DNA of 64,000 nucleotides from Alphaproteobacteria bacterium (lineage in GTDB: Bacteria > Pseudomonadota > Alphaproteobacteria > CALKHQ01): assembly GCA_965227515.1 (NCBI GenBank), contig CBDDFZ010000001.1, positions 1,673,600-1,737,599 of the forward strand, in the 5' to 3' direction. Below the pieces are notes generated by a model. It was not told the DNA's origin. It made no database searches and saw nothing but the letters and a program-made list of their open reading frames with translations. Made by a program: the position numbers and the translations under genes. Shown here piece by piece: positions 4,522-63,327 of the stretch. Position 1 is the stretch's first letter, and each line of letters opens with the position of its first letter.

Positions 4522-4522
4522 C

Positions 4523-41183: not shown

Positions 41184-41270
41184 GCGGTCGTGGCGGAATT
41201 GGTAGACGCGCAGCGTTGAGGTCGCTGTGGGGTAAAACCCGTGGAAGTTCGAGTCTTCTCGACCGCACCA
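41184..41270 (+). tRNA. tRNA-Leu (anticodon GAG), 87 nt with encoded CCA
   Basis: Folded by hand. Acceptor GCGGTCG/CGACCGC. Anticodon stem CAGCG/CGCTG with loop TTGAGGT. Long variable arm. T-arm GGAAG-TTCGAGT-CTTCT. Confidence 0.9.
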
Positions 41271-41322
41271 TTCCTCAAAATAGCCGCCCACCCTTAGCGG
41301 CCAACGGACCGGGACCTCGCCG

Positions 41323-45624: not shown

Positions 45625-45980
45625 GGCTTTGTCGGGCCGCGCCGCGCCAGATAGCGCGGGTTGGTCACCGACAGGGTTGCCTCCAGGTGCGCGCGCAGCG
45701 CCTTGCCGAGGCCGGGCGTCGTGGTTTCGGTGAGCGTGCCGTCGCGCAGCGCTGCCGCCAGCCCGTCGATGTCGGGCGGCGCATCGCTTCCGCAAGCGGC
45801 CAGGAGCGTGCGGTCGGCGGCCGCGGCGTCATGCTGCATCGCCCGCGCGGCGATGCCGAGCGCGTTGCCGATCATCGCGCCGGTGTAGCGCTGGTCCTTG
45901 GCCAGCGCCGGCTGGACGGAGTCCGCGAACGCGGCCCGCGCGCCCTCCAGCAGGTCGATCAGGTCGGTGTTACTGGCCAT
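45621..45980 (-). CDS. Small helical protein of the kind paired with ACAD-associated phosphotransferases (LvaB/DUF6285-like)
   Basis: ATG 45980 overlaps the upstream gene by 11 nt. 119 aa. Positioned between the kinase and ligase genes. Confidence 0.55.
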   Translation of the reverse strand: MASNTDLIDLLEGARAAFADSVQPALAKDQRYTGAMIGNALGIAARAMQHDAAAADRTLLAACGSDAPPDIDGLAAALRDGTLTETTTPGLGKALRAHLEATLSVTNPRYLARRGPTKP

Positions 45981-47049
45981 GACCCCAGGATGCCACATAG
46001 TCCTCGATGCCCACGAGCGCTTCGTGGGTCAGTTCCGGCGCCATCATGCCGGTCAGCGCCAGCTCCAGCCGGTTGGCCGGATCGCCGGCGGCACGCGCTC
46101 CCTGTTGCAGCGCAATCACCGCCCAGCGCACCGCGGCCATGATCTCCCAATAGGCGATGGCGCGGTCGTCGATAGGGCGCGGGTCGACCGACTGGTAGCC
46201 GTCGTAGAACGCCTGGCGGGGGGCGATGCCGCCGGCCTCGCGCTCGACCGCGCCGAAGCGCCAGCACGCGGCGCAGAACCAGGCGATGTCCTCGTGGCGG
46301 TCGCTCCAGCCGGCGAATTCCCAATCCAGCACGGCGGTCAGGCGGCCGTCCCCTTCTACGTCCACCATGTAGTTGCCGGTGCGGTAGTCGCAGTGGCAAA
46401 GCACCAGCGCCTGGTCGGCGGGAGCGTGCGCCGCCAGCCACGTCAGCGCGTATTCCAGTGCGGGCTCGGTGGCGCCGATCTCGTCGAGATAGCGGCGGTA
46501 CTGCGCCACGCGATGGTCGCTCGGCCGCTGGTCGGGCACCGGCAGGAAGTCCAGGTCGCGCGTGTCGCCCGGCAAAATCCTGTGCAGCAGGGCCAGTTCG
46601 CGGCCGAGCTGATGGGCCACCGCCGGGCCGAAGGACTCGACCGCCGGATCGCGCACCACGCGGCGCGCCTGGGCGACGCCGGCCACATGCTGCATGACGA
46701 AGAACGGCGCGCCGATGGGGCCGTTGTCCTCGCACAGCGCGATCGGCTCGGCGACGGTCATGCCGACACGCTGCCCGGTGCGCAGCAGGGCGAACTCCTG
46801 CGCGCGCCCGTGGCTGGTGGCCACACCACTGGCGGAGTCGGTGCGCAGCACCCAGCGGTGGGTGCCGGCGCGCGGCCCGCCCGCGACCTCGGCCTCGACC
46901 GACCAGTTCTCCTGGATCGCGCCGCCGCTCAGCAATTGCGGGTTCGACAGCGTGACACTGTCGGCGCCGATCAGCGGCGCCAGTGCCGCGCCGGCCCGCG
47001 CCAGCCGCTCGCCCCGCAGCCGGCCCCCGTCGGCGGTCTCAGGCGCCAT
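45970..47049 (-). CDS. Phosphotransferase-family (APH-fold) protein, LvaA/ACAD10-kinase-like
   Basis: LCHCDYRTGNYMVD catalytic loop and VLDWEFAGW motif. Overlaps the ACAD stop by 11 nt. Confidence 0.85.
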   Translation of the reverse strand: MAPETADGGRLRGERLARAGAALAPLIGADSVTLSNPQLLSGGAIQENWSVEAEVAGGPRAGTHRWVLRTDSASGVATSHGRAQEFALLRTGQRVGMTVAEPIALCEDNGPIGAPFFVMQHVAGVAQARRVVRDPAVESFGPAVAHQLGRELALLHRILPGDTRDLDFLPVPDQRPSDHRVAQYRRYLDEIGATEPALEYALTWLAAHAPADQALVLCHCDYRTGNYMVDVEGDGRLTAVLDWEFAGWSDRHEDIAWFCAACWRFGAVEREAGGIAPRQAFYDGYQSVDPRPIDDRAIAYWEIMAAVRWAVIALQQGARAAGDPANRLELALTGMMAPELTHEALVGIEDYVASWGHGQ

Positions 47050-48247
47050 CGGCGCCCCAGCGCCAGAACCCGTCGCCGGCCTCGGCGTAGCGCTTTGCCA
47101 ACACCATGCGGTGGACCTCGTCGGCGCCGTCGACCAGCCGCGCCTGGCGGGCGTAGCGGTAGATCCATTCCAGCACCGTGTCCTTGGAATAGCCGCGCGC
47201 GCCGTTGAGCTGGATCGCGGTATCCGCCGCCCGGTGCAGGGTGTTGGCGACGTGCACCTTGGCCATGGAGACTTCGGCGCGCGCCCGGTCGCCCTGGTCC
47301 AGCAGCCAGGCCGCGTGCATCACCGACAACCGCCCGATCTGGATGTCGTGGGCGACCGCGCCCATCAGCAGTTGCACCGACTCCCGGTCGGCGAGCTTGA
47401 CCCCGAACCCCTCGCGCTCGGACGTGTACGCGGCGGCGATCTCCATGCAGCGCTTGGCGAGCCCCAGCCAGCGCATACAGTGGGTGAGGCGGGCGGTGCC
47501 GAGCCGGATCTGGGTCAGCTTCAGACCGTCGCCGACCTCCATCAGCCGGTTCTCGTCGGGGATGACCAGGCCGTCGAAGCGCAGCTCGCAGTGGCCGCCA
47601 TGCTCCTCCGGCCCCATGATCGGGATGCGGCGCTCGATGCGCCAGCCCGGCTGGTCCTTGTCGAACAGGAACGCGGTCAGCCCGCGGCGCGGGTCGTCGC
47701 TGGTGCGCGCGATCAGGATGAAATGGCTGGCCACGCCGGCCCCGGTGATGAACCACTTGTGGCCGTTGACCACCCAATTGTCGCCGTCGCGGGTCGCGGT
47801 GGTGCGGATCATCGTCGGGTCCGAACCGCCGCCGGGGTGCGGCTCGGTCATCGCGAAGGCGGAGCGGACGGTGCCGTCGACGATGGGCTGCAGCCAGCGC
47901 GTCTTCTGGGCGTCGGTCGCCACCTTCTCCAGCACCGTCATGTTGCCGTCGTCGGGGGCGGCGCAATTGAAGCAGACCGGGCCGAAGATCGAGCGGTTGG
48001 CCTCCTCGTACATCACCGCGCGGCCGACCACGCCAAGCCCCATGCCACCGCGCGCGGGCGGCATCTGCGGCGACCACAGGCCGGCTTCCTTCACCTGGGC
48101 CTGCACGACGGCCAGCAGGTCGGGGCGGATGTTCTGGTGGTCGTCGTAGTTGGCCGCGTCGGCCTCTAGCGGCAGGATGTGCCGGTCGACGAAGGCACGG
48201 GTGCGCAGGCGCACGTCCTCTACTGCGGGGTCCAGCGCAAAGTCCAA
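47039..48247 (-). CDS. Acyl-CoA dehydrogenase family protein (LvaC/ACAD10-11-like)
   Basis: ORF 47039..48592 trimmed to TTG 48247, 9 nt after GGAGGA, giving MDFALDPAVEDVRLR. Has AFAMTEPHPGGGSDP and a C-terminal ARLVDGADEVH. Confidence 0.88.
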   Translation of the reverse strand: MDFALDPAVEDVRLRTRAFVDRHILPLEADAANYDDHQNIRPDLLAVVQAQVKEAGLWSPQMPPARGGMGLGVVGRAVMYEEANRSIFGPVCFNCAAPDDGNMTVLEKVATDAQKTRWLQPIVDGTVRSAFAMTEPHPGGGSDPTMIRTTATRDGDNWVVNGHKWFITGAGVASHFILIARTSDDPRRGLTAFLFDKDQPGWRIERRIPIMGPEEHGGHCELRFDGLVIPDENRLMEVGDGLKLTQIRLGTARLTHCMRWLGLAKRCMEIAAAYTSEREGFGVKLADRESVQLLMGAVAHDIQIGRLSVMHAAWLLDQGDRARAEVSMAKVHVANTLHRAADTAIQLNGARGYSKDTVLEWIYRYARQARLVDGADEVHRMVLAKRYAEAGDGFWRWGADGA

Positions 48248-48249
48248 GG

Positions 48250-49221
48250 CTAGTGATCCTCCACGAGGTTTTCGGTCGGCGCGGCGCCGGAGGCGATCAA
48301 CAGCCCACCGGTCAGGGCATCGGCGCGCGGCGTGATCATGCGCGGCTGGATGGTCTCGGGCAACCAGGGCTGCACCGCCGCCGCCATGCCGCCGTGCAGT
48401 GCCGCCGGCCACGCGCCGGCCGGGTCCAGGATCGCGATCAGCCGGCCGATCTCGCGCCCGGCCGCCGCCAGCAGCACCCGCGCGGCGGGATCGCTGTCCC
48501 CGGTCTCCGCGACCATGCGCGCGATGGCGGCGAAATCGGCGGGCTGGGCGCGGGTCAGCCACTCGATGATGGCGACGTGATCGTCGCCGCAATGGGCGCG
48601 CACCCGGCGCAGCAGGTCTGTATCGGGCGCATGGGCCATGCCGGCGGGCATGGCGTCGGCGTCCGCCGGTATCATCGGCGAGCCAGCGATGTCGTGGGCC
48701 AACCGGCCCTCATCCACGGCGCGGATTGCCAACGACAGCGCGCGATACCCTGTCCAGGCCCCACCGCCTTCGTCGCCGATGGGAAAGCCCCAGCCGCCGG
48801 CCTGGTGGCAGCCGCCGGCCTCGTCCAGCGCCATGGCATTGCTGCCGGTGCCGACGACCACCAGCACGCCGGGCTTGCCCTCGTGGGCGCCGATCAGCGC
48901 GATGTAGGCGTCTGAGACGATGTCGAGGCTGTGGGTGGGCGGCAGGGCGGCGATGAACTGCGCCCGCCGCTCCATGTTGCGATGGCCGGCCAGCGCGCAG
49001 ACGACGGCGGTGTCGGCCAGGGCGGTCTGGCCAAGCCCGGCGGTCGCGACAGCCTGCTCGGCCATCGATGTGACGGCGGCAATGGCGCCCTCGGCACTGA
49101 CGGTCAGGCTGGCCGGGCCGGCGGTCGCCTCGGCCAGCACGGTGCCGTCGCGATCGGCCAGCCGCGCGGTGGCGTGGCTCGCCCCGCCGTCCACCGCCAG
49201 CAGGAAGCGCGGTGCGCTCAT
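48250..49221 (-). CDS. BadF/BadG/BcrA/BcrD-type ATPase (N-acetylglucosamine-kinase-like)
   Basis: ORF 48250..50235 trimmed to ATG 49221, which overlaps the upstream stop (ATGA). LAVDGGASHATARL and VVVGTGSNA motifs. Confidence 0.75.
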   Translation of the reverse strand: MSAPRFLLAVDGGASHATARLADRDGTVLAEATAGPASLTVSAEGAIAAVTSMAEQAVATAGLGQTALADTAVVCALAGHRNMERRAQFIAALPPTHSLDIVSDAYIALIGAHEGKPGVLVVVGTGSNAMALDEAGGCHQAGGWGFPIGDEGGGAWTGYRALSLAIRAVDEGRLAHDIAGSPMIPADADAMPAGMAHAPDTDLLRRVRAHCGDDHVAIIEWLTRAQPADFAAIARMVAETGDSDPAARVLLAAAGREIGRLIAILDPAGAWPAALHGGMAAAVQPWLPETIQPRMITPRADALTGGLLIASGAAPTENLVEDH

Positions 49222-50147
49222 GCCCGGGCCTCGCCGTAGTAGAGCGTGACCGTGTGCTTGGCCTCGGCGAAGAACAGCCAGCGGCCGACCAGGGTGCCGG
49301 CCAGGGCGCTGGCGAATGCGAGCAGGCTGAGCACGGCACCGAGCCAGCGGTCGCCTGTCGCCAGCACGATCACGGCCAAGAGGGCGGGCACCGCCGCAGC
49401 GGCCAGTAAAGCGATGACGCGCAGGCGCGTGGCGTGCCGGCGCGCGATCCGGAAGCCCATCTCCTTCATCAGGTAGTTGGGCTCGGTGTGCGGCGGCTCC
49501 AGCATGCGGACCTTTCCGATGTAGCCAAGGCCGGTGGCGGTACCGCTGTCGCTGATCGACGCGGTGCGGTCCATCCGCCACCAATAGGCGATCTGGAGGC
49601 CGCTTGTCAGCGCGGCGGCCGCGAGTGCCTGCCATGCCATCCAGGGCAGGTACTGGCCGAACAGCAGGGCCAGCAGCAGATAGGCCTGCGCGCCGGTCAG
49701 CCAGGCATACGCGAGATACAGCGCCGGGGTGTAGGCGTTGTGCCAGTGCCGCACCGTCTTCAACGAGGCATAGATCATCGCCGTGCACAGCACGGTGACG
49801 ACCGCCAGAACGGCTGTGACCGTGCCCAGGGCGCCGCTGAACTCCTCGCGGAACACCCACAGCGCGCCCAGCACTACGGCCGGCAGGAACGTGACCAGGG
49901 CGGCCACGCCCTCGCGCGACAGCCACGACGACCGCCATTGGCTGAGCGCCCGCCAGGCCCGCTCCGGATGGCCGAGGTGAAAGGTGGAGGACACCAGCCC
50001 GGCTGCGGCCAGCCCCAACGCCAGCGTGAAGCCAACGAGCCCGCTGCCCCATTCCGGTGCCAGCAGCCCCAGCGACAGCAGGAACAACAGCCCGTAGCCG
50101 GCACCCGACAGCGTCGTGAACACGATGATGGAAAGGGCGGGGTGCAT
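49218..50147 (-). CDS. DmsC/YnfH-family membrane anchor subunit-like protein
   Basis: ORF 49218..50192 trimmed to ATG 50147. Eight hydrophobic segments. The MHPALSIIVFTTLSGAGYG...FHLGHPERAW pattern is typical of DMSO-reductase anchor proteins. Confidence 0.75.
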   Translation of the reverse strand: MHPALSIIVFTTLSGAGYGLLFLLSLGLLAPEWGSGLVGFTLALGLAAAGLVSSTFHLGHPERAWRALSQWRSSWLSREGVAALVTFLPAVVLGALWVFREEFSGALGTVTAVLAVVTVLCTAMIYASLKTVRHWHNAYTPALYLAYAWLTGAQAYLLLALLFGQYLPWMAWQALAAAALTSGLQIAYWWRMDRTASISDSGTATGLGYIGKVRMLEPPHTEPNYLMKEMGFRIARRHATRLRVIALLAAAAVPALLAVIVLATGDRWLGAVLSLLAFASALAGTLVGRWLFFAEAKHTVTLYYGEARA

Positions 50148-50296
50148 TCGGGCGGAACAGCCGGTCGGTGGATTGGATACCCTTCCTAGCAAATTGGCGG
50201 GCGTTGGCGCGACTGCCGTGTCGGGCCTGAGGCAATGCGCCTGTTTACGCCCATCAAGGTCTTCCCCGCAGGCGCGCCATCGTACATGTTCATGAT

Positions 50297-50749
50297 ATGT
50301 ACACTCTGAAGCCCGGCATCAAGCGCGATCCCATGCGGCGCTGGGCGTTGCCCGACCGTGTCTTCTTCGGCCATGGCGCCTGCCATATTCTGGCCGGTGC
50401 CTATCTGGCGAGGCCGCCATTGCCCGGCTTTCGTGCCGAGCGGATCGTTCCGCGCGACGACTTGGCGGGGAACCATATCTACCTCACCGACGGCGACATC
50501 GCCTTCGACTATCACGGCTATTCCGTGCGCCGGCGTCTGCTCGACCATCATCGCAAGGGCTGGTCGGGCCGATATCCCGGCTGGGATTGCGCGATCGAGG
50601 AGGTCGATTTCGACCTGCTGTGCACCGCGGCGCTGAACGGCCGCAAGATGCTGGGACCGGATCAGTACCTGTTCGATCCGGTGCCGCGCGCCCACCGCTT
50701 CATCGCCAGGATCGATCACACTCGCGCATCGAGTTGTGCGCAACGGTGA
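50297..50749 (+). CDS. Hypothetical protein
   Basis: 150-aa ORF with host-like codon bias. No family recognised. Confidence 0.45.
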   Translation: MYTLKPGIKRDPMRRWALPDRVFFGHGACHILAGAYLARPPLPGFRAERIVPRDDLAGNHIYLTDGDIAFDYHGYSVRRRLLDHHRKGWSGRYPGWDCAIEEVDFDLLCTAALNGRKMLGPDQYLFDPVPRAHRFIARIDHTRASSCAQR

Positions 50750-50760
50750 GCGCTCTCCAA

Positions 50761-51384
50761 CTAATCCTCTTGGGGCAGGAAGAACGCCTCGTCCGCCATT
50801 TCCGGCCGGGCGACGATGCTGTCCACCCGCCAGCGTCCGGCGGGCGATTCCCGGAGCAGGAAGGCAACCGGGCCCTCGTTGGTGTCGACCGCATGGACAA
50901 CAACCTGCCTGGCGCCGTCGCCCTGGGTGATCTCGTCGACCGACTGCACCTCAACCGGACCTGCAAAATCGATGGCGTGAATGCCGAGCTGATCGGCCGA
51001 CCACAGGATGACCTGAAAACTGTGGAACACGTCGATGCCAAGGAACGGCCTTTCATAGTCCATCGGGTGCTCATAGGGGCCGAACTGAGCGTCGAAGGCT
51101 TGCCTCTTCAGGTCCTGGTCGGCATCCGGGTCGAGGTAGTCGTCGAACTGGAACCGCTGAACGTGCATCATGAACCGCATCCTGGCCGTCGGGTCGAGCG
51201 CGAAGTAGGCAGCGATGAAATCGTCCTCGGCGAAGACTTCCGAGTAGGTCTGGACCGCCGCTTCGGGGGTCGAGAGGTCCAATACCTGCTCGACCCGCGA
51301 CATGGGAGGGCTCGCCATGGCGGCTGCCGCATATCCCGTGGCGGTCGCAGCGGCGATGGCAAGACTGAACGTTCGCAGGATCAT
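50761..51384 (-). CDS. Secreted protein, function unknown
   Basis: ORF 50761..51501 trimmed to ATG 51384 (GGAGA SD). Signal peptide. Lies 22 nt downstream of the Fe-S subunit gene. Confidence 0.55.
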   Translation of the reverse strand: MILRTFSLAIAAATATGYAAAAMASPPMSRVEQVLDLSTPEAAVQTYSEVFAEDDFIAAYFALDPTARMRFMMHVQRFQFDDYLDPDADQDLKRQAFDAQFGPYEHPMDYERPFLGIDVFHSFQVILWSADQLGIHAIDFAGPVEVQSVDEITQGDGARQVVVHAVDTNEGPVAFLLRESPAGRWRVDSIVARPEMADEAFFLPQED

Positions 51385-51406
51385 AGCGATCTCCGTTGAT
51401 CGGGGT

Positions 51407-52150
51407 TCAGGGCAGCGCCGACAGCGCGCGGTCGAGCCAGGCGAGGAAGCCCGTGGGCTTGGCGCCGCCATCCTCGGGCACTGGCGCGGGATCGCTGGCA
51501 TCGCGCGACACCTTCGGGCGCGGCGGCAGGTATTTGTTTGTTGGCCGGCAGCCCATTTCCGGCATCAGGTCATAGCCTTGGCGCTCGCGCACCAGTGACG
51601 AAACCGCCGAGTCCGGGTCGGCAAGGTCGCCGAAGTGCCGCGCGCCGGTCGGGCAGGCATTGACGCAGGCGGGCTGGCGCTGCGCCTCCGGGATCGTCTC
51701 GTTCTCGATGCGGTCGACGCAGAGCGTACATTTCTTCATCACCCCGCCCAGCGTGTCCATCTCGCGCGCGCCATAGGGGCAGGCCCAGGCACACAGCCCG
51801 CAACCGATGCACAAATCCTCCTCCACCAGCACGATGCCGTCGTCGGCGCGCCTGTAAGAGGCGCCGGTCGGGCACACGGTCACGCACGGCGCGTTGTCGC
51901 AATGCAGGCAGGAGCGCGGGAAATAGACCGTGCGGGCATGCGGGCCCTCGCCAACCTCGAACCCGTGCACCCGGTTCAGCCAGGCGCCGGCGACATCCTT
52001 GCCGTAGGCGTTCTCGTCGGACAGCGGCGCGACATGGCCGCCGGTGTTCCACTCCTTGCAACTGGTCACACAGGCCTGGCAGCCGACGCAGGTGTCGAGG
52101 TCGATGACCAGGCCCAGCTTGCGCGGTGGGGAGGGCGGCAGCGAGGTCAC
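51407..52150 (-). CDS. 4Fe-4S dicluster (DmsB/PsrB-like) electron-transfer subunit
   Basis: Four Cys clusters (CVGCQACVTSC, CLHCDNAPC, CIGCGLCAWAC, CTLC...). The GTG start overlaps the catalytic subunit stop. Confidence 0.9.
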   Translation of the reverse strand: MTSLPPSPPRKLGLVIDLDTCVGCQACVTSCKEWNTGGHVAPLSDENAYGKDVAGAWLNRVHGFEVGEGPHARTVYFPRSCLHCDNAPCVTVCPTGASYRRADDGIVLVEEDLCIGCGLCAWACPYGAREMDTLGGVMKKCTLCVDRIENETIPEAQRQPACVNACPTGARHFGDLADPDSAVSSLVRERQGYDLMPEMGCRPTNKYLPPRPKVSRDASDPAPVPEDGGAKPTGFLAWLDRALSALP

Positions 52151-55050
52151 TTGCCGCCTCCCAGGACTGGGACATCCAGGTAACGCGCGGTCTGGGCGTG
52201 GCGGCTGAAGTCGGCGCCATAGCGCACGTCCTCAGGCGACGGCGGCAGGCCGGGCGGCAGCGGCAGGGCGTCGAAGCGCGGCTCGGTCGCCTCGGCACCC
52301 TCCGCCTTCTCGATCGAGACCCGCAGGTCGAACCATGCCGCCTGGCCGGTGATCGGGTCGGCGACCGGGCGCCGGTGGCCGTAGCCGTCGGCCGGGAGCC
52401 GCTCGTCGATCAGGTGGTTGAGCAGGAAGCCCTTCGTTGCCTCCGGCGCGTCCGGCTTCAGGTTCCAGGCCCCGGCTCGCTTGCCGATGGCGTTCCAGGT
52501 CCACACCGTCTGCTCGTTGACGCCGGCCATCCGCCTGACCTCAACCTTTATGCGGCCGTTGCGGCTGGAAAGCCACGCCCAGTCGCCGTCCTGCAGGTCG
52601 TGCCGGTCGGCCAGTGCGTGGGAGATGTAGAGCACGTTGCGCGCCATGATCTGGCGCAGCCACGCGTTCTGCGATCCCCAGGAGTGGTACATCGCCATCG
52701 GCCGCTGGGTGATGGCGTGGAGCGGATAGGCGGCCTCGTCGGTGGCCTGGTCCTCGTGCGGCGGGTGCCAGAACGGCAGCGGATCGAAATGGCGGGCGAT
52801 CCAGTCGCGCTGGTCATCCGGTGGCTGCACCGGGCCGTGGCCCTCGGCGGCGCGGCGGAAGCGCTGCAGCGGCTCGGCATAGAGCTGCAGGATCACCGGA
52901 TCGGGCGTGGCGACGAAGCCCATGCGCTCTGCATATTTCAGGTAGGCGGCGTTGCCGTGCTTGTAGAAGCGCTGGTCGTCGGCCAGCCGGTCGTGCCAGA
53001 AGCAGCCGTTCTCGATGTAGCGGTCGAGCTGGTCCGGATTGGGCGCGCCCTCGCCGTGCTGGGTGCCGCCTTCGCCGCGCCATCCGGCCAGGCTGCCGAT
53101 GCCGGGCCGGCGCTCGTGATTGACCAGATAGTCCGGGTAGCCGCCCGGATAGCGCGGGCCGCCGTCCGGCTCGGTCATGCCGGGCAGGCCTAGCCGCGCG
53201 CCCAGGTCCAGCAGCACGGACTGGAACGGCCGCACGTCGCGGTCGGGCTCGACGACCGGCTGCCGGATCGCGTCGGCGGGGCCGTCGGCCTCCGAAATCG
53301 GCCGGTCGAGCAGCGAGACGCAGTCCCATCGCTCCAGATAGGTGGTGTCCGGCAGCACGATGTCGGCGTAGGCCACCGTCTCCGAATAGTAGGCGTCGGA
53401 ATAGACGATGTGCGGGATCTTGTAGTCGCCGGTGGCCTCGTCCTTCGCCGCCAGCCGCTGCATGGTCTCGGCCGTGTTCATGGCCGAGTTCCAGGCCATG
53501 TTGGCCATGTACATGAACAGGGTGTCGATGGGGTAGGGGTCGCCGTCCACCGCGTTGCGGATCACCAGGTGCATCATGCCGTGGGCGGCAATCGGCGCCT
53601 CCCACGAATAGGCGCCGTCGATGCGCATCGGCCGGCCGTCGGCGTCGAGCAGCAGGTCCTCCGGCGCTTGGGGGAAGCCCAGCGGCGGACCCGGCAATGG
53701 CTGGCCGGCGCGGACCTGGTCGGGCTTGCCGGCGGGCAGCGGGCCGGGCGGGGCCGGGCGCGGGAACGGCGCCTTGTAGCGGAAGCCGCCGGGCGCATCG
53801 ATGCTGCCGAGCAGGACCTGCAACAAATGCAGCGCGCGGCAGGTGTGGAAACCGTTTGAGTGGGCGGAGATGCCGCGCATGGCGTGCATGGAGACCGGGC
53901 GGCCGACCATGCGCGAGTGGTGCTCGCCGGTCCAGTCGGTCCACGGCTGGTCGATGGCGATCTCATGGTCGAAGGCGGCCGCGATCAGCTCGTCGCCGAT
54001 GCGCCGGATGGTGGCTGCCGGCACGCCGCACTGGTCCGCCACCGCCTCCGGCGCATAGGCCGGGTCGAGATAGCGCTCGGCCAGCAGCTCCAGCACGGGC
54101 CGGGCCTGGCGGCCGTCCTCCAGCGTCACCGCGCCATGCAGGGCGGCCGCCATCGGCGCCTCGCGATGGGGCAGGGCGCGCTGGCGCAGGCGATGCCAGA
54201 CCTGCGGCTGGCCCTCGCCGTCGCGCGCGAACAGGCCATGGTCGGCGGCCTCGGGGTCCTCCACTACCAGCCAGCCGGCATTGGTGAACCTGAGCAGGTA
54301 GTCCAGGTCGATGCGGTGCTTCGACAGCACGTGATGGATCAGCGCCATCACGAACAGGCCGTCGCGGCCGGGCCGGATGCCGATCCATTCGTCGGCGATG
54401 GCGGAATAGCCGGTGCGCACCGGGTTGACCGAGACCACCTTGGCACCGCGCGCCTTCAGCTTGCCGAGCCCCATTTTGATCGGGTTGGAGTCGTGGTCCT
54501 CGGCAACCCCGAACATCAGCAGGTACTGGGTGCGCTCCCAGTCCGGCTCGCCGAACTCCCAGAACGAGCCGCCGATGGTGTAGATGCCAGCGGCCGCCAT
54601 GTTGACCGAGCAGAACCCGCCATGGGCGGCGTAGTTCGGGGTGCCGAACTGGCTCGCCCACCAGCCGGTCAGCGCCTGGCTCTGGTCACGCCCGGTGAAG
54701 AACGCGAGCTTCTTCGGGTCGTCATCGCGTATCGCGCCCAGCCAGCCGGCGACGGTGTCCAGCGCCTCGTCCCACTCGATTTCCTGGAACTCGCCCTTGC
54801 CGCGCTCGCCGACCCGCTTCAGCGGCTTGGTCAGCCGCGCCGGCGAGTTGTGCTGCATGATGCCGGCCGAGCCCTTGGCGCACAGTACGCCCCGGTTCAC
54901 CGGGTGGTCGGGGTTGCCCTCAATGTAGCGGACGCGCCCGTCCTTCAGGTGCACTTTGATGCCGCAGCGGCAGGCGCACATATAGCAGGTGCTGGTCTTG
55001 ACCTCGTCACCGATCGGCTGGTTGACCGGGATGGGGCGCCTACTCGTCAT
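52147..55050 (-). CDS. Molybdopterin (bis-MGD) oxidoreductase catalytic subunit; no signal peptide
   Basis: 967 aa. N-terminal CYMCACRCG...C Fe-S motif at residues 22-58. No hydrophobic Tat h-region. Confidence 0.9.
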   Translation of the reverse strand: MTSRRPIPVNQPIGDEVKTSTCYMCACRCGIKVHLKDGRVRYIEGNPDHPVNRGVLCAKGSAGIMQHNSPARLTKPLKRVGERGKGEFQEIEWDEALDTVAGWLGAIRDDDPKKLAFFTGRDQSQALTGWWASQFGTPNYAAHGGFCSVNMAAAGIYTIGGSFWEFGEPDWERTQYLLMFGVAEDHDSNPIKMGLGKLKARGAKVVSVNPVRTGYSAIADEWIGIRPGRDGLFVMALIHHVLSKHRIDLDYLLRFTNAGWLVVEDPEAADHGLFARDGEGQPQVWHRLRQRALPHREAPMAAALHGAVTLEDGRQARPVLELLAERYLDPAYAPEAVADQCGVPAATIRRIGDELIAAAFDHEIAIDQPWTDWTGEHHSRMVGRPVSMHAMRGISAHSNGFHTCRALHLLQVLLGSIDAPGGFRYKAPFPRPAPPGPLPAGKPDQVRAGQPLPGPPLGFPQAPEDLLLDADGRPMRIDGAYSWEAPIAAHGMMHLVIRNAVDGDPYPIDTLFMYMANMAWNSAMNTAETMQRLAAKDEATGDYKIPHIVYSDAYYSETVAYADIVLPDTTYLERWDCVSLLDRPISEADGPADAIRQPVVEPDRDVRPFQSVLLDLGARLGLPGMTEPDGGPRYPGGYPDYLVNHERRPGIGSLAGWRGEGGTQHGEGAPNPDQLDRYIENGCFWHDRLADDQRFYKHGNAAYLKYAERMGFVATPDPVILQLYAEPLQRFRRAAEGHGPVQPPDDQRDWIARHFDPLPFWHPPHEDQATDEAAYPLHAITQRPMAMYHSWGSQNAWLRQIMARNVLYISHALADRHDLQDGDWAWLSSRNGRIKVEVRRMAGVNEQTVWTWNAIGKRAGAWNLKPDAPEATKGFLLNHLIDERLPADGYGHRRPVADPITGQAAWFDLRVSIEKAEGAEATEPRFDALPLPPGLPPSPEDVRYGADFSRHAQTARYLDVPVLGGGK

Positions 55051-55059
55051 CGGGAGAGG

Positions 55060-55386
55060 TCACGCGCGACCGGTCTTCTCGCCGTTGGCGAACAGGCGGT
55101 TGCCCTGTTCGTCGATGATCTGCTTGCCCTTCGAGATGGCGAAGCTCTCCGCCTCGTCCTTGGACGAGAAGGTGTCTGCGCGCTGGTACTCGCGTTCCAG
55201 GTTTCCGTCATCGCCGCCGGTCTTGACGATGACCCCGGCAAGCCGCCACTGGCTGCCTGCCTTGATCGGGGCGGGGTAGATCGTCAGCCCGGCGTGCTCC
55301 ACCGGATCGCCGCGCCCGGCCGGGCCGCCGTCACCGGATTTCTCGCCACCGCCGCCGCCGAACAGTTTGGATAGGATGCCTGCCAT
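55060..55386 (-). CDS. HlyU-type small conserved protein (nominal 'transcriptional activator HlyU' family; function unverified)
   Basis: SKLFGGGGG N-terminus, QWRLAGVIVK, and SKGKQIIDEQGNRLF C-terminal motif as remembered for that family. Sits 9 nt upstream of the Mo-enzyme gene. Confidence 0.65.
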   Translation of the reverse strand: MAGILSKLFGGGGGEKSGDGGPAGRGDPVEHAGLTIYPAPIKAGSQWRLAGVIVKTGGDDGNLEREYQRADTFSSKDEAESFAISKGKQIIDEQGNRLFANGEKTGRA

Positions 55387-56525: not shown

Positions 56526-57464
56526 TCACACCGGGATCAGCGTGATGCCGTCGTTGGTCGCATGGTACTCCGGCAGGATGAACACCATCACGTCGCTGCT
56601 GTTGTAGACGTATGTGTAGGACTCGGTGCCGTTGCCGCCGGTGATGAAATAGCTGCCCTGGATGGAGTCGCCATCCAGGAACGCGTAGTTTTCGATGATA
56701 TCGGGCACGCCGTCGGTGCCGGCGATGAAATAGTCAGCGCCTGCGCCGCCCACCAGCATGTCGGTGCCGTTGCCGCCGTCATAGGTGTCGTCGCCGTCGC
56801 CGCCGTGCAGGTAGTCGGTGCCGTCGCCGCCGAACATCATGTCATTGCCGCCGCCGCCCCACAGGCGATCGTCGCCGGCGTCGCCGTACAGAATGTCGTT
56901 ACCCACCGCGTCGTAGCCGTCGCCGAACAGGCGGTCGTTGGCCTCGCCGCCGTGGATCGTGTCGTGGCCGTACATGCCGTAGATCCAGTCCTCGCCGCCG
57001 CCGCCGTCGATGGTGTCGTTCCAATAGCCGCGGGTGTAGGCCAGTTCATGGTGGTCGCCGTTGATCCAGTCGTGGTCGTCGCCGCCGAATATCCGGTCGG
57101 CGCCGGCGCCGCCATAGAGCTTGTCCTCGCCATCGCCGCCGTCGATCAGGTCGTTCCCGGCGCCACCGAACACCGTGTCGTCGCCGTTTCCGCCATAGAG
57201 CGAGTCGTTGCCGGCCATGCCGTCGATGGTGTCGTGCCCGTCCTCGCCATGGAGCGTGTCGTCGTCCTGCAGGAACGGGTTGGGCGTGCCGTTGCCGATG
57301 ATGATGTCGTTGAACGGCCCGCCATGGATTTCATCGTCCCCGGCGCCGCCGATGAACGTGCCGCCGATCTGGTCGTATTGCGGCTCGGGCGGCGCCTCGC
57401 GCGTATCGGGCGTCCACCGGAGATCGGTCTGGAGGGAACTGGGCGGGGTGCTGCTGCGGGCCAT
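56526..57464 (-). CDS. RTX (hemolysin-type calcium-binding repeat) protein
   Basis: At least 12 GGxGxDxxx nonapeptides (GGAGDDEIHG, GGNGDDTVFGGAGNDLIDGGDGEDKLYGGAGADRIFGG...). GGAG SD. Confidence 0.85.
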   Translation of the reverse strand: MARSSTPPSSLQTDLRWTPDTREAPPEPQYDQIGGTFIGGAGDDEIHGGPFNDIIIGNGTPNPFLQDDDTLHGEDGHDTIDGMAGNDSLYGGNGDDTVFGGAGNDLIDGGDGEDKLYGGAGADRIFGGDDHDWINGDHHELAYTRGYWNDTIDGGGGEDWIYGMYGHDTIHGGEANDRLFGDGYDAVGNDILYGDAGDDRLWGGGGNDMMFGGDGTDYLHGGDGDDTYDGGNGTDMLVGGAGADYFIAGTDGVPDIIENYAFLDGDSIQGSYFITGGNGTESYTYVYNSSDVMVFILPEYHATNDGITLIPV

Positions 57465-57921: not shown

Positions 57922-60900
57922 ATGAACAAGCAGGTCACCACCAAGCGCGGCCGCCTGAACATCGCCGAAGGCAGCGCCCCCACACAGCCCGACGCGCAGG
58001 AGCTTTCGCACCTGTACCGCGCGATGCTGACGGCGCGCGAGATCGACCGGGTCGAGGATGTGGCGACCCGGCGCGGCGAGGCGTTCTTCCACGTCTCCGG
58101 CAAGGGGCACGAGGGCTCGGCGGCGCTGGCGCTGCACCTGACCAACGACGACTGGCTGCACTGCCACTATCGTGACAAGGCGCTGATGGTGGCACGCGGC
58201 ATCACCGCGCGCGCGTTCTTCGACGGCTTCTATTGCAAGGACGCCTCGCATTCGCGCGGGCGCCAGATGTCGGCCCATATGTGCGATGCCTCGCTGCGCG
58301 TTGCCAGCGTGTCCGGCCCGGTCGGCAATGGCGCGTTGCATGCTGTGGGCATGGCGCTGGCCGGCAAGGACATGGAGACCCGGCCCATCGTGCTGTTCTC
58401 CTGCGGCGACGGCACCACGCAGGAGGGCGAGTTCCTGGAGTCGTGCGCCGAGGCGGCGCGCGCGGAAGCCCCGGTGCTGTTCTTTGTCGAGGACAATGGC
58501 TGGGCGATCTCCACGCCGACCGCCGGCAAGACGTTCTATGCCCTGCATGCGCAGCGGCCGGACGCCTTCCACGGTATCCCGATCCACCGCATCGACGGGC
58601 GCGACGCGATCCAGGCGTGGCGCGAGCTCGGGCCCATCGTTGCGCGCATGCGGCGCACCCGCCAGCCCGCGATCGTCGTGTTCCAGGTCGCGCGCATCGC
58701 CAACCACACCAACGCCGACGACCAGTCGATCTACCGCGACGCGGCCGACATCAAGCTGGCCGAGGAAACCTGCGACCCGATCCCGATCCTGGAAGACCAG
58801 CTCCTGGACATGGGGTGGAGTGCCGCCGATCTGGCGGCGGCCAAGGACGAGATCGCGCGCCAGGTGGCGGAGGCCGATGAGGCGGCGGCCTTCGGGCCCG
58901 ACCCCGAGCCGATGCTGACGGCCGACGTGGCGCCGTCGGCTGCGGTCGCGGAGGCGTTGCAGCCCGGTCGTGCGCGCAAGCCCGCCGCGGCGCCGGCGCC
59001 CGCCGCGGTGCCGAACACGCCGCAGACCATGGGCGAGGCGATCCGTGCCGTGCTGCGCGGCCGGCTGGCCGACGACCCGCGCGTCTATCTGTGGGGCGAG
59101 GACATCGAGGACCCGAAGGGCGACGTATTCGGCGTAACCAAGGGCCTCAGCACCCAGTTCCCGAAGCGCGTGGTCAACGCGCCGCTGACCGAGTCCACCA
59201 TCGTCGGCGTCGCCATCGGCCGGGCGATGGCCGGCGAGCGCCCGGTGGCGTTCCTGCAGTTCGCCGATTTCCTGCCACTTGCCTACAACCAGATCGTCAG
59301 CGAGCTGGGCAGCATGGCGTGGCGCACCGACGGCGCCTTGACCGCGCCTGTTATCATCATGGTGCCGTGCGGCGGCTATCGCCCCGGTCTGGGGCCGTTC
59401 CACGCCAGTTCGTTCGAATCGCTGATGACCCACACGCCGGGCATCGACGTGGTGATGCCGTCGACAGCGGAGGATGCGGCCGGCCTGCTGAACGCCGCCT
59501 TCGAGTCAACCCGGCCGACGGTGTTCTTCTATCCCAAGAGCTGCCTCAACGACCCGCGCGGCGCGATGACCGGCGATGCCGGCCAGGTCAGGCTGACGCC
59601 CGGATCGGCGCGCAAGGTGCTGTCGGGCCGCGACCTGACAATGGTCGGCTGGGGCAACACCGTGCGGCTGTGCGAGCAGGCTGCCGAGGCGCTGGAGAAA
59701 GCCGGTGTCGAGGCCGAGGTGTTGGACCTGCGCAGCCTGGGGCCCTGGGACAAGCGGGCGGTGCTGTCGTCGGCGGAGACCAGCGGCCGGCTGCTGGTGG
59801 TGCACGAGGACAACCACACCAACGGCTTCGGCGCCGAGATTCTGGCGACGGTCGGCGAGCAGTGCCGCACCCATGTGGCCATGCGCCGGGTGACCCGGCC
59901 CGACACCTATGTGCCGTGCAATTTCGCCAACCAGATCGAGGTGTTGCCGTCGTTCAAGCGGGTGCTGGAAACGGCGGCCGACATGCTGGACATCGACGTC
60001 GAATGGACGCCGCCGCCGGCCGCCGAGGAAGGCATCGTGCTGGTCGAGGCCATCGGGTCCGGCCCGACCGACGAGACCGTCGACGTGGTCGAGCTGATGG
60101 TCGAGGTCGGCCAGACTGTCGAGCGCGGCGAGGAGATCGCGGCCCTTGAGGCGATCAAGAGCGTGTTCGAGCTGACCTCGCCCGCCTCCGGCGTGATTGA
60201 GGAGATCGTCGTCGGGATCGGCGAGACGGTGCCGGTCGGTGCGCCGCTGATGAAGATCCGCACCGACGACACCACCCAGCGCGCCAAGCCCTTGACCCAC
60301 GAGGCGCCCGGCACGCCCACCCTGACCCGGCGCGCCAAGCCGGCGGCACCGGCTGTTGCCGGCAGGGGCGAGGGCGCCGCGGCCCAGCCGGCCGGCACGC
60401 TCAGGGTCGGGCTGTCGCAGGTCGCCACCGTCACCGGCAGCCGGGTGGTGCCGAACGAGGAACTGGTACAGGGCCGCACCGACGACACCTACCGCGATGC
60501 GGAGAAGCTGACCGGCATCCGCGCCCGCCATTGGGCGGCGGAGGGCGAGACGGTGCTGTCGCTCGGCGTGCGCGCGGTGCGTGCGGCGCTGGAGGCGAAC
60601 GGGCTCACCGCCGACGACCTCGACCTCGTGATCTGCAGCACGACCACGCCAGATCAGGTGACGCCCTCCGTGGCCTATCGCATCCTGCGCGATGTTGCCG
60701 GCGAGCGCGGCAACCCGGCGGTGGCCGCCTATGACATCAATGCGGCATGCTCGGGCTATCTCTACGCGCTGCAGGCCGCGCACGACTTCCTGCAGAACCA
60801 GCCGCAAGGCCGTGTGCTGGTGGTGACGGCCGAGGTGCTGTCGCGGCTGCTGGACCGCGACGACCCGTCGACCGTGCTGGTGTTCGGCGACGCGGCGTCG

Positions 60901-61353
60901 GCCACCGTGGTCTATGGCGACGCGCATTTCGATGGCGCTGCCGCGCGCCTGTTCCGCCCTGATATCTCCGGAAAGAGCGACGACCGCAACGCGCTGACCG
61001 TGCCGGTGCCAGGCCAGGGCTATGTGCGGATGGACGGCCAGCGGGTGTTCCGCGAGGCGGTGCGCGCCATGGTCGGCAGCCTGAACCGGGTCTGCGCCGG
61101 CCAGGGGCTGGGGCTCGGCGACCTGGACATGGTGGTGCCGCACCAGGCCAACCAGCGCATCATCGACGCCATCGCGCAGCGCACCGGCGCCAACGCCTAT
61201 TCCAACATCAAGCATTTCGGCAACACGTCGTCGACCAGCATTCCGTTGTGCCTGGCCGAGGTGCTGCCCGACGCGCCGGCCGGCCAGCGGCTGGGCCTGT
61301 GCGCCTTCGGCGGCGGCTATACCTACGCGGCCGCGGTGCTGGAAACCGTCTAG
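57922..61353 (+). CDS. Fusion protein: TPP-dependent 2-oxoacid dehydrogenase E1-alpha + E1-beta + lipoyl-type domain + FabH-like KAS III
   Basis: ORF 57688..61353 trimmed to ATG 57922 (1143 aa). Has the TPP motif GDGTTQEGEF...EDNGWAIS, E1-beta NAPLTESTIVGVAIG, lipoyl-like LEAIKSVFEL, and a KAS III triad (C943 NAACSGY, H1074 VPHQANQ, N1101 GNTSSTS). Confidence 0.85.
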   Translation: MNKQVTTKRGRLNIAEGSAPTQPDAQELSHLYRAMLTAREIDRVEDVATRRGEAFFHVSGKGHEGSAALALHLTNDDWLHCHYRDKALMVARGITARAFFDGFYCKDASHSRGRQMSAHMCDASLRVASVSGPVGNGALHAVGMALAGKDMETRPIVLFSCGDGTTQEGEFLESCAEAARAEAPVLFFVEDNGWAISTPTAGKTFYALHAQRPDAFHGIPIHRIDGRDAIQAWRELGPIVARMRRTRQPAIVVFQVARIANHTNADDQSIYRDAADIKLAEETCDPIPILEDQLLDMGWSAADLAAAKDEIARQVAEADEAAAFGPDPEPMLTADVAPSAAVAEALQPGRARKPAAAPAPAAVPNTPQTMGEAIRAVLRGRLADDPRVYLWGEDIEDPKGDVFGVTKGLSTQFPKRVVNAPLTESTIVGVAIGRAMAGERPVAFLQFADFLPLAYNQIVSELGSMAWRTDGALTAPVIIMVPCGGYRPGLGPFHASSFESLMTHTPGIDVVMPSTAEDAAGLLNAAFESTRPTVFFYPKSCLNDPRGAMTGDAGQVRLTPGSARKVLSGRDLTMVGWGNTVRLCEQAAEALEKAGVEAEVLDLRSLGPWDKRAVLSSAETSGRLLVVHEDNHTNGFGAEILATVGEQCRTHVAMRRVTRPDTYVPCNFANQIEVLPSFKRVLETAADMLDIDVEWTPPPAAEEGIVLVEAIGSGPTDETVDVVELMVEVGQTVERGEEIAALEAIKSVFELTSPASGVIEEIVVGIGETVPVGAPLMKIRTDDTTQRAKPLTHEAPGTPTLTRRAKPAAPAVAGRGEGAAAQPAGTLRVGLSQVATVTGSRVVPNEELVQGRTDDTYRDAEKLTGIRARHWAAEGETVLSLGVRAVRAALEANGLTADDLDLVICSTTTPDQVTPSVAYRILRDVAGERGNPAVAAYDINAACSGYLYALQAAHDFLQNQPQGRVLVVTAEVLSRLLDRDDPSTVLVFGDAASATVVYGDAHFDGAAARLFRPDISGKSDDRNALTVPVPGQGYVRMDGQRVFREAVRAMVGSLNRVCAGQGLGLGDLDMVVPHQANQRIIDAIAQRTGANAYSNIKHFGNTSSTSIPLCLAEVLPDAPAGQRLGLCAFGGGYTYAAAVLETV

Positions 61354-61835: not shown

Positions 61836-62639
61836 CTATTCCGATCCGCGGGCTGAGATGCCGCCGTCCACCGGCAGGCAGGCGCCGGTGATGTAGCTGG
61901 CCTCGTCGGACGCCAGGAACAGGATCGCGGCAGCAATCTCGCGCGGCCTTGCCTGCCGCTTCATCAGGCCCGGCCCGCCCTCGTACGGGCGTTCGGTGAC
62001 GGCAGGGTCGATGGGCGCGCCGCGTGCCGCCGCCCGCTTCAGGTGGAACTCTGTCAGGGTGGCGCCCGGCAGCACGGCGTTGACCCGGATGCCGGCTTCG
62101 GCATGGTCGCAGGCCAGCGAGCGGGTCATGCCGAGCATGCCGGCCTTCATGGTGTCGTATTGCAGCATGCCCGGGCGGCCCGACTGCGCGTGCACCGACG
62201 AGACGTTGACGATGGTGCCGCCGGCCGGCATCAGCGGAATGACGTGCTTCGCGGCCAGCGCGGCGCCGCGCAAGTTGACGGCGTAGATCGCATCCCAGCT
62301 TGCCTGGTCCGCCTCGGTCACCGGGCCATAGGCGCGGATGCCGGCGTTGTTGACCAGCACGTCGACCCGGCCGTGGCGCTCCGCGCATTGGTCGGCGAGC
62401 GCTTCGATCGCGGCCTCGTCCGCGACATCGACCTCCGCCGGCCAGACGCGCGCGCCAACGTCTTCGCCCACGGCCGCGCCGCACTCGTGGGCAATCGTCT
62501 CAGCCGTTTCTTGTGCGTCGCTGAAGTAACGATCGACCAGAACGACCGTCGCCCCCTCGGCCGCGAACATCATCGCTGTCGCCCGGCCAATCCCCGCGCC
62601 GGCGCCTGTTACAACCGCAATCCTGCCGTCCAGCTTCAT
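61836..62639 (-). CDS. SDR-family oxidoreductase
   Basis: ORF 61836..63086 trimmed to ATG 62639. TGAGAGIG, NNAG and YxxxK (YDTMKAG) motifs. Confidence 0.9.
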   Translation of the reverse strand: MKLDGRIAVVTGAGAGIGRATAMMFAAEGATVVLVDRYFSDAQETAETIAHECGAAVGEDVGARVWPAEVDVADEAAIEALADQCAERHGRVDVLVNNAGIRAYGPVTEADQASWDAIYAVNLRGAALAAKHVIPLMPAGGTIVNVSSVHAQSGRPGMLQYDTMKAGMLGMTRSLACDHAEAGIRVNAVLPGATLTEFHLKRAAARGAPIDPAVTERPYEGGPGLMKRQARPREIAAAILFLASDEASYITGACLPVDGGISARGSE

Positions 62640-62692
62640 CAATTGCCTCGCTCTTTCTGTCCTTCGATGGCGTTCGGATAACTTCCGATCAT

Positions 62693-62722
62693 TTGACATT
62701 CTTTCTTGGCCGTGCCTACGCT
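62693..62722 (+). promoter_or_regulatory. Candidate promoter TTGACA-N18-TACGCT
   Basis: -35 at 62693-62698 and -10 at 62717-62722. Lies 33 nt upstream of ATG 62755, in an AT-richer divergent region. Confidence 0.35.
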
Positions 62723-62754
62723 CGATCATCGGGTTTGCAGAAGGCGTTCCCCCA

Positions 62755-63327
62755 ATGGCCGACTTCCCGATTCCGATTGGCGTGGACCGCATGCTACGCG
62801 ACATCGCGGAGGGCATAGGCGGCGCCGCGCGCATACTCCCCACGGTATCCCGGTCCGAGGTCGGAGCGGTTGCCATGCGCCGCGCCACGGTCGCCATCGA
62901 CTTCGAGCTTAGCAGCGCCGCAAAGCGGACAGATGACAGCATCGGTCTGGGCGCAAAGACCTTCCTGTTCGGTTTCGGTGCGTCGACGGAAACGACCGAG
63001 ACGAAGGTGCTGAACCACGGCCGGATCGAGATGGAGATCGTCGCCATCGTCGAACCGGAGGAGGGTGAGCGACCGAAGACCGCCACGCCGGCTCAACCCG
63101 GCCCGCCCGTGAAGGCGCCAACTCCCCTGAGCGCAGATCAGATTCGCCAGGCCCTGGCGATAATCCAGGGGGAACTCCACAACCTTCCCCTGGACGAGGA
63201 GGCACGCGGGAAAATCGAGGCCAAGATCGCGGAAATACACGCTGCGATATCGGCTGGCGACCTGCACCTCGCCAATGAATTGCTGCAATATATCAAGGAC
63301 ATTGTGCAGGAAGTCCTGAACCCCTGA
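62755..63327 (+). CDS. Small protein with a beta-rich 'trypco2-like' core, a Pro-rich linker and a helical tail
   Basis: 190 aa. Core is RRATVAIDFELSS...KTFLFGFGAS...GRIEMEIVAIV. Lower G+C than the host. Confidence 0.5.
   Translation: MADFPIPIGVDRMLRDIAEGIGGAARILPTVSRSEVGAVAMRRATVAIDFELSSAAKRTDDSIGLGAKTFLFGFGASTETTETKVLNHGRIEMEIVAIVEPEEGERPKTATPAQPGPPVKAPTPLSADQIRQALAIIQGELHNLPLDEEARGKIEAKIAEIHAAISAGDLHLANELLQYIKDIVQEVLNP

Follow-up and report, generated by a model that had tools for sequence, protein, structure and literature searches.

Near the end of the 64,000-nucleotide stretch of alphaproteobacterial DNA analyzed here (hereafter the window, meaning that whole stretch), a single gene on the forward strand, at positions 57922 to 61353 with the stop codon included, encodes a predicted fusion of the two subunits of a 2-oxoacid dehydrogenase E1 component (E1α and E1β), a lipoyl domain, and a β-ketoacyl-acyl carrier protein synthase III (KAS III), as judged from its translation and Pfam matches. 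The open reading frame (ORF) comprises 1143 codons with zero internal stops, and its third-position GC content is high, as in the real genes of this 68% GC window. An alternative, longer ORF is possible from a TTG at position 57688; nonetheless, homologs align from approximately residue 1 of the ATG form. An earlier note, made from the letters of the window alone, had described one uninterrupted polypeptide of 1143 amino acids (aa) with four modules, and translation and Pfam confirm this description, with the motifs it listed (GDGTTQEGEF...EDNGWAIS, LEAIKSVFEL, the residues C943, H1074, and N1101, and K746 encoded by aag) all present as given.

The E1α module, of the thiamine diphosphate (ThDP)-binding type, spans aa 32-329 (58015..58908, +; Pfam E1_dh, 7e-39) and contains the ThDP/Mg motif G162-D-G...N192 (58405..58497, +), of the GDG(X)∼26N type. 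A disordered, Ala/Pro-rich linker (aa 333-362; 58918..59007, +; predicted local distance difference test [pLDDT] <50), which differs in length and sequence between family members, leads to the E1β module (aa 368-690; 59023..59991, +), comprised of a pyrimidine-binding domain (Pfam Transket_pyr, aa 368-542, 2e-25) and a C-terminal domain (Pfam Transketolase_C, aa 561-671, 1.5e-27). The lipoyl domain (aa 703-780; 60028..60261, +; Pfam Biotin_lipoyl, aa 718-779, 1.9e-13) harbors the predicted lipoyl-lysine, K746 (60157..60159, +), and is separated from the KAS III domain by a second linker, in which the family alignment reveals the motif KPxTxExPGxPxL (aa 791-803; 60292..60330, +). The FabH-type KAS III domain itself (aa 829-1143; 60406..61350, +) is indicated by a match just under the cutoff of the NCBIfam model PRK09352 and by matches to FabH structures, with Pfam matches to ACP_syn_III (aa 937-1000) and ACP_syn_III_C (aa 1061-1141). 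Alignment places within it the equivalents of the Escherichia coli FabH catalytic triad: the acyl-accepting cysteine, Cys943 (60748..60750, +; FabH Cys112), His1074 (61141..61143, +; FabH His244), and Asn1101 (61222..61224, +; FabH Asn274).

The nearest solved structures to the E1α module are the E1α of the branched-chain 2-oxoacid dehydrogenase (BCKDH) from Thermus (1um9_A, 128 bits) and human BCKDHA (121 bits), while the E1β module matches 1um9_B at 1.6e-56, with a target-normalized Foldseek TM-score of 0.90, and the KAS III part matches the Aquifex, Neisseria, and E. coli FabH proteins at 1e-41 to 1e-43. In the AlphaFold2 model (mean pLDDT 80), aa 705-780 are built as an all-beta domain, and K746 lies in a beta-hairpin turn between strands 738-743 and 748-752.

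The earlier note also held that no E2 acyltransferase core is present, and this stands: the 1143-aa protein has no Pfam match to 2-oxoacid_dh (the E2 core), to E3_binding, or to any carboxylase or carboxyltransferase domain, and the tripeptide DHR is absent from its whole length. Matches in NCBIfam are all sub-threshold and are to separate E1α, E1β, E2-lipoyl, and FabH models, so no curated family covers the whole protein. The best names available there for the E1 part are pyruvate dehydrogenase (PDH) models, all far below their cutoffs, and the KAS III part scores 248.3 bits against PRK09352 (cutoff 249) and 214.2 bits against TIGR00747 (cutoff 292.1). Searches of the PDB by sequence and by fold (Foldseek) gave single-module matches and no entry with the whole architecture. 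No description of the architecture was found in a PDB entry, an NCBIfam model, or the searchable full-text literature (subscription-only papers being outside this scope), where a single, unrelated paper mentions both FabH and a lipoyl domain; the earlier note likewise knew of no such covalent four-domain architecture. Nor was a paper found on anteiso fatty acids in Cysteiniphilum, one of the genera discussed below.

The fusion architecture is that of a large, old, conserved, and widespread family, and is not particular to the source genome. A protein search returned the identical sequence (P0001, on a 4.07-Mb contig) and, among the matches listed, 119 further cluster representatives with at least 96% query coverage, 54-67% identity, and the same six Pfam domains; the architecture occurs in more than 120 full-length protein clusters (90% identity), whose named members are mostly Planctomycetota (Lignipirellula, Rosistilla, and metagenome-assembled genomes [MAGs] of Pirellulaceae). 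When one genome was scanned for each species, at least 597 relatives came up, and the best 80 of these loci include 62 intact, full-length ORFs from at least seven phyla, which are the basis for the residue counts out of 62 given below. Their sources comprise Planctomycetota (Pirellulaceae, Planctomycetaceae, Tautonia, and Phycisphaera), the Verrucomicrobiota/Kiritimatiellae side (Pontiella/Kiritimatiellales and Opitutaceae), Lentisphaeria, many Spirochaetales (including Alkalispirochaeta), Sumerlaeota and Actinomycetota MAGs, and a scattering of Proteobacteria (Rhizobium spp., Devosia, Neisseriaceae and Methylococcaceae MAGs, and Cysteiniphilum litorale). When the lipoyl-linker-KAS III part was searched exhaustively against 1.84 billion representatives clustered at 50% identity, 37 of the best 150 listed were full-length (at least 1087 aa). 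Across the 62 sequences, the E1, lipoyl, and KAS III parts co-vary in their pairwise identities (r = 0.80, 0.70, and 0.69), which indicates that the protein evolves as one unit, as expected of one fusion inherited whole. The earlier note had asked whether the fusion might be an artefact of assembly and whether the same domain order recurs elsewhere; an assembly or frameshift artefact is rejected by the recurrence of the intact architecture in more than 120 clusters and 62 genome loci, and the breadth of this recurrence corrects any view of the protein as a single-genome oddity. No record covering at least 80% of the fusion protein was found among the PLSDB plasmids. Family members are publicly annotated as "transketolase," "2-oxoisovalerate dehydrogenase subunit beta," or "beta-ketoacyl-ACP synthase 3." A full-length copy that has diverged much further, at 29% identity, yet keeps its four modules in this order is present in a Spirochaetales MAG (L066, 10001-13489) and indicates a second deep clade or a paralog.

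Genomic context was compared by clustering every ORF of 80 aa or longer that lies up to 6 kb from the fusion gene at the 62 related loci and the window locus; an exact-sequence look-up of context returned no record for P0001 or P0005. No neighboring gene is conserved across phyla in this set, and no E2 gene is among the conserved neighbors at the 62 loci. Synteny occurs at the clade level only, with unrelated housekeeping genes (aconitase, SerRS, MsrB, and PtsP). In four Phycisphaera-type loci (L030, L044, L045, and L050), a divergently oriented gene for a FabF/FabB-like ketoacyl synthase of ∼450 aa lies upstream and adjoins the fusion gene; this is the only fatty acid-related neighbor in any clade.

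Conservation of catalytic residues was examined in 27 close members and in the 62 diverse members. Seven residues are invariant (62/62): G162, G164, and N192 of the ThDP motif, the lysine K746, and the triad Cys943, His1074, and Asn1101, such that both the lysine and the triad, on whose conservation the earlier note had made its proposal depend, are retained throughout. Position 163 of the ThDP motif is more variable (Asp in 53, Glu in eight, and Gly in one). Two histidines of the E1 part, H262 and H494, are also invariant in the family alignments. H262 is aligned with His291-α of human BCKDH ("IGHHSTSDD" versus "IANHTNADD"), and H494 is presumably the equivalent of human His146-β′, given the aligned offset and the human motif. 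The title of PDB entry 1ols, a Foldseek match, names His291-α and His146-β′ as acting in reductive acylation.

The middle domain is well supported as lipoyl-type rather than biotinyl-type, on the strength of its predicted attachment site. The context of the lysine across the wider family is mostly E-x-D-K-A, the canonical lipoyl motif; the PROSITE lipoyl-attachment pattern matches aa 730-759 of the window protein and is matched in 54 of the 62 members; and K746 sits at the beta-hairpin turn, all of which argue for lipoyl identity. The biotin attachment pattern is matched by none of the 62, and no Met-Lys occurs at the lysine site. Beyond this domain, the linker motif takes the form KPxT(Q/R)ExPGxP(V/I)(L/I) in copies from Planctomycetota, Spirochaetes, Kiritimatiellae, Sumerlaeota, and Methylococcaceae, and is missing from those of Rhizobium, Devosia, Neisseriaceae, and Francisellaceae; its residues E794 and P799 are each kept in 49 of the 62. 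AlphaFold2 places a strand at 798-803, within the motif, at low-to-moderate confidence, and the motif may serve to dock E3, E1, or KAS III.

In E. coli FabH, the adenine of coenzyme A (CoA) is stacked between Trp32 and Arg151 and hydrogen-bonded to Thr28, while the pantetheine is held by Arg36, Asn209, and Asn246 (PMC4606726). To compare these positions, six stand-alone FabH proteins from the same scan (Terriglobia, Dehalococcoidia, and Pseudomonadota) and 14 sampled fusion domains were aligned against the E. coli FabH sequence, the key positions of which were checked and residues 35-315 of which agree by eye with the 1hn9 alignment. All six stand-alone proteins keep T28, W32, R36, and R151, whereas T28, W32, and R151 are missing from all 14 fusion domains. 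Of the 62 fusions, 46 have Asp at position 32 and none has Trp, and at position 151 there are 30 with Phe, 12 with Pro, and one with Arg; the window protein has D855 at the position of Thr28, D859 at that of Trp32, and P982 at that of Arg151. The GDGAGA motif of FabH is replaced in the fusions by GDAA(S/T). Phe87 closes the primer pocket of E. coli FabH, and its position in the fusions is occupied by Thr, Ser, or Cys. On the other side of the active site, R1079, five residues after His1074, is the equivalent of the acyl carrier protein (ACP)-docking Arg249 and is Arg in 59 of the 62; Phe157 and Gly209 are retained, and at least 54 of the 62 keep the FabH-like GGG loop (aa 1130-1132). With the triad and the Arg249 equivalent kept and T28, W32, and R151 gone, the domain resembles an ordinary FabH on its extender side but not on its acyl-CoA side.

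Several natural variants of the architecture occur. A split form is found on three separate metagenome contigs (L081, at 2662-5972, as well as L082 and L083), where a 661-aa E1α-E1β gene overlaps a 442-aa lipoyl-KAS III gene by 4 nt. The split leaves the lipoyl domain with KAS III, and the domain therefore belongs with the condensing enzyme, as it does with the E2 core in classical complexes. The KAS III domain of one split-form protein (P0214) has Tyr at position 32 and is more FabH-like than the fused proteins, and may be closer to the ancestral state. At another locus (L084), a gene for an 81-aa phosphopantetheine-binding protein (ACP) comes 5 nt after a lipoyl-KAS III gene of 450 aa. The longest variant (P0134, 1942 aa; L080, 10001-15829; NCBI GCA_029777335.1) extends the architecture to E1α-E1β-lipoyl-KAS III-ketoreductase (KR)-ACP, and the KR directly after KAS III implies a carrier-bound β-keto product. 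The C-terminal 258 aa of this protein have no Pfam match, and its neighbors are cell-envelope genes (Glycos_transf_4 and Wzy_C), with no obvious biosynthetic cluster.

Each part of the fusion has well-known relatives, and the differences from them lie in how the parts are connected. BCKDH and the Gram-positive/mitochondrial PDH (1um9, 1dtw, and Geobacillus 1w85) share its ThDP-dependent E1 folds (E1β identity of 31-38% by Foldseek, with a TM-score of ∼0.9), as well as the ThDP motif, the reductive-acylation histidines, and a lipoyl-lysine at a hairpin tip. Unlike these complexes, the fusion has α and β in one chain, carries its lipoyl domain on a condensing enzyme, and is without an E2 core, any peripheral-subunit-binding domain, or a dedicated E3; with the E2 core and peripheral-subunit-binding domain absent by the domain models applied, it does not belong among the E1-E2-E3 complexes. 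FabH proteins (E. coli 1hn9, Aquifex 2ebd, and Neisseria 4ryb; ∼30-32% identity by Foldseek) share the thiolase fold, the triad, and Arg249, but the fusion domain differs from them in the loss of Thr28/Trp32/Arg151, the replacement of Phe87, the GDAA(S/T) motif, and the lipoyl domain covalently ahead of it, and with its predicted CoA site absent and its score below the model cutoff it is not a canonical FabH. The actinobacterial OdhA/KGD proteins (8p5v, a Foldseek match) likewise rearrange 2-oxoacid dehydrogenase modules in one polypeptide (E1o with the E2o catalytic domain). OdhA keeps the E2 catalytic domain, makes succinyl-CoA, and is not known to have a lipoyl domain of its own or a condensing enzyme. 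Outside CoA metabolism, the closest known precedent for delivery from a lipoyl arm to a carrier is the QncN/QncL/QncM system of the tetrahydroisoquinoline antibiotics, in which a fused E1α-β reportedly loads a two-carbon unit on a lipoyl arm for delivery to a carrier protein rather than to CoA. There, a ketose phosphate serves as the donor, an E2-type acyltransferase moves the unit to ACP, and no ketosynthase is known to take part; by contrast, the fusion has a KAS III cysteine as the acceptor and no E2 domain. Streptomyces plasmids (e.g., NZ_CP061282.1, 92457-94745) carry fused "alpha-ketoacid dehydrogenase subunit alpha/beta" genes beside nonribosomal peptide synthetase genes and without a KAS III, and these plasmid genes resemble QncN-type lipoyl-dependent loading systems.

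The fusion protein thus joins known modules wired in a new way, and we infer that it would work as a 2-oxoacid dehydrogenase up to the acyl-lipoyl stage and as a FabH from the acyl-cysteine onward. We regard it as somewhat probable, from the conserved residues and domain order, that E1 acylates the lipoyl arm and that KAS III takes the acyl group directly and condenses it with malonyl-ACP, making the protein a 2-oxoacid to 3-ketoacyl-ACP primer synthase. According to this proposal, the fused E1α-β, probably as a homodimer imitating the α2β2 tetramer, would decarboxylate a 2-oxoacid using ThDP and reductively acylate the lipoyl-K746 on the domain that begins ∼12 residues past E1β. As E1 (α2β2) and FabH are both two-fold symmetric, a homodimer of the fused chain could satisfy the symmetry of each. 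The S-acyl-dihydrolipoyl arm would then swing into the KAS III tunnel by way of the flexible linker of ∼45 residues, and Cys943 would acquire the acyl group by thioester exchange, with KAS III in the role of the E2 catalytic core and no acyl-CoA formed. His1074 and Asn1101 would decarboxylate malonyl-ACP docked on R1079, and the Claisen condensation would deliver 3-ketoacyl-ACP to type II fatty acid (or related) synthesis, while the dihydrolipoyl arm would be re-oxidized in trans, most simply by the dihydrolipoamide dehydrogenase (Lpd) of the cell. The relay from E1 through the in-cis lipoyl arm to the KAS III cysteine had been suggested in the earlier note, and the residue conservation and the missing adenine clamp of the KAS III domain lend it support; the natural variants (split, ACP-neighbored, and KR-ACP-extended), to judge by their domain content, also support this mechanism. 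The candidate substrates include branched-chain 2-oxoacids, which would yield iso/anteiso primers, and pyruvate, which would yield an acetyl primer. E1α is slightly nearer to BCKDH than to PDH, and E1β scores alike against both; an assignment of substrate from similarity was rejected, BCKDH being only marginally closer than PDH.

Several observations weigh against this proposal or are readily accommodated by others. We infer all of its steps from homology, including lipoylation, the 2-oxoacid, the transfer to Cys943, and the extender. A lipoyl-lysine arm measures ∼14 Å, shorter than phosphopantetheine, and must reach a cysteine at the bottom of a tunnel, as in FabH. Re-oxidation in trans is assumed, since no E3-docking element was found in the fusion protein, and the score of the KAS III part falls just under the PRK09352 cutoff for FabH. 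In the clade of the window protein, the lysine is surrounded by T/I-K-S in place of D-K-A, and since the Pfam Biotin_lipoyl family spans both cofactors, the middle domain could be a non-lipoylated, structural or biotinyl-type hybrid-motif domain, with E1 serving simply as a decarboxylase or carboligase, its product arriving at KAS III by another path. This we consider very improbable, given that the lysine is invariant and D-K-A is the family majority, that no member has the biotin pattern or a Met-Lys, that the E1 histidines specific to lipoyl reductive acylation are invariant, and that the protein contains no carboxylase or carboxyltransferase domain. The CoA site raises a further question: Arg36, a pantetheine contact, is kept in 50 of the 62 fusions. 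The split-form protein P0214 keeps the Arg151 equivalent and GDGAGA, so not every lipoyl-KAS III protein has lost the CoA site. Both features would fit an arrangement in which E1 and the lipoyl domain supply a separate E2 (most bacteria encode E2 and E3 elsewhere in the genome), acyl-CoA is made, and the tethered KAS III uses it, the fusion merely raising the local concentration. It is quite unlikely, in our judgment, that co-localization is all that the fusion provides: the Thr28/Trp32/Arg151 clamp is gone in the fusions and present in stand-alone relatives, no E2 gene is a conserved neighbor, the lipoyl domain accompanies KAS III and not an E2 core when the gene is split, and a lipoyl domain without an E2 core and peripheral-subunit-binding domain has no obvious entry into a foreign E2 assembly.

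Direct transfer from the lipoyl arm could also occur without condensation, if the KAS III-like domain were a non-condensing E2 surrogate that passes the acyl group to holo-ACP (or to another thiol or nucleophile) to give acyl-ACP. KAS III-like acyltransferases exist (CerJ, DpsC, and ChlB6), FabH has a minor acetyl-CoA:ACP transacylase activity, and the ACP genes or domains beside some of the variants fit such a reaction equally well. We nevertheless consider it unlikely, as the histidine and asparagine for decarboxylation are invariant and the GGG loop is kept in most of the family, whereas known acyltransferase-type KAS III homologs usually alter the triad, and as a KR right after KAS III in the longest variant makes sense only with a β-keto product.

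Within the window, the fusion gene appears to be monocistronic, with a divergent 5′ neighbor encoding an RTX protein (56526-57464) and a convergent 3′ neighbor encoding a short-chain dehydrogenase/reductase (SDR; 61836-63086, -). The SDR is FabG/BudC-like, with every NCBIfam score below cutoff and an unexplained N-terminal extension of ∼150 aa, and it is not a conserved neighbor of the fusion gene in other genomes. The gene for the octanoyl/lipoyl transferase, lipB (40381-41271, -; NF010921, 348.8 bits against a cutoff of 230), lies upstream at a distance of 16.6 kb, close to the ∼17 kb of the earlier note. LipB could act in trans on K746, with its gene unlinked to the fusion; lipB is not among the conserved neighbors of the fusion gene in other genomes. 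As called, the lipB ORF has ∼65 surplus N-terminal residues, and its true start may be further downstream. The earlier note had also found no lpd, ACP, or malonyl-transferase gene in the window, and a Pfam or NCBIfam scan of its ∼50 GC3-biased ORFs of 100 aa or more likewise detected neither Lpd nor an ACP nor FabD (shorter, ACP-sized ORFs being outside the scan). The sole Pyr_redox_2 protein among the scanned ORFs (2791-4590) resembles a sulfide:quinone reductase, below the model cutoff, and is not Lpd.

The remainder of the window encodes other functions. A cluster at 975-5455 (-) encodes a SulP/STAS transporter, a 599-aa protein that joins a Blh-type sulfurtransferase domain to a flavoprotein like sulfide:quinone reductase, and a metallo-beta-lactamase-fold protein, is likely involved in sulfide/sulfur handling, and is followed by a Crp-family regulator (5624-6286). 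A module at 43981-48592 (-), which looks like one for lipid or acyl-CoA catabolism, includes an acyl-CoA dehydrogenase (517 aa), an APH-family kinase, a DUF6285 protein, and an AMP-dependent ligase, and was not seen linked to the fusion gene in other genomes. A dimethyl sulfoxide (DMSO)-reductase-family operon at 49218-55386 (-) encodes a catalytic subunit of 967 aa together with a 4Fe-4S subunit and a DmsC/NrfD anchor; immediately upstream of this molybdoenzyme operon is a HlyU-type regulator, and the RTX protein has Ca-binding repeats. Further genes of the window encode an ATP12 chaperone, a TRAP transporter, and CheZ, which along with HlyU and RTX point to a probable proteobacterial source.

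In textbook fatty acid synthesis, initiation needs an acyl-CoA primer, with FabY and malonyl-ACP decarboxylase as known alternatives, and the 2-oxoacid dehydrogenases of the textbooks depend on an E2 core for unloading the lipoyl arm to CoA. If the proposed mechanism is true, both rules would be broken by one polypeptide, with a condensing enzyme as the acceptor for the lipoyl arm. The family would then provide a new model for the re-targeting of swinging arms in evolution, in which the split and KR-ACP variants serve as comparison points, as well as a compact, single-gene tool for engineering fatty acids with branched or odd chains that would require neither a Bkd complex nor a CoA pool. For the cell, it would constitute a direct, channeled link from amino-acid or glycolytic 2-oxoacids to membrane-lipid synthesis, and would explain lipid priming in Planctomycetota-Verrucomicrobiota-Chlamydiota (PVC) bacteria and many spirochaetes. 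Somewhat more tentatively, and at a little short of even confidence, we suggest that this is an unrecognized route for starting acyl chains, in which the lipoyl arm delivers to the ketosynthase cysteine and acyl-CoA is bypassed: in Planctomycetota and other PVC bacteria, the stand-alone, housekeeping-like gene may be a core one and perhaps the main or only initiator of fatty acid synthesis, while in Proteobacteria such as the source organism, it may be a horizontally acquired module that adds new (e.g., branched) primers.

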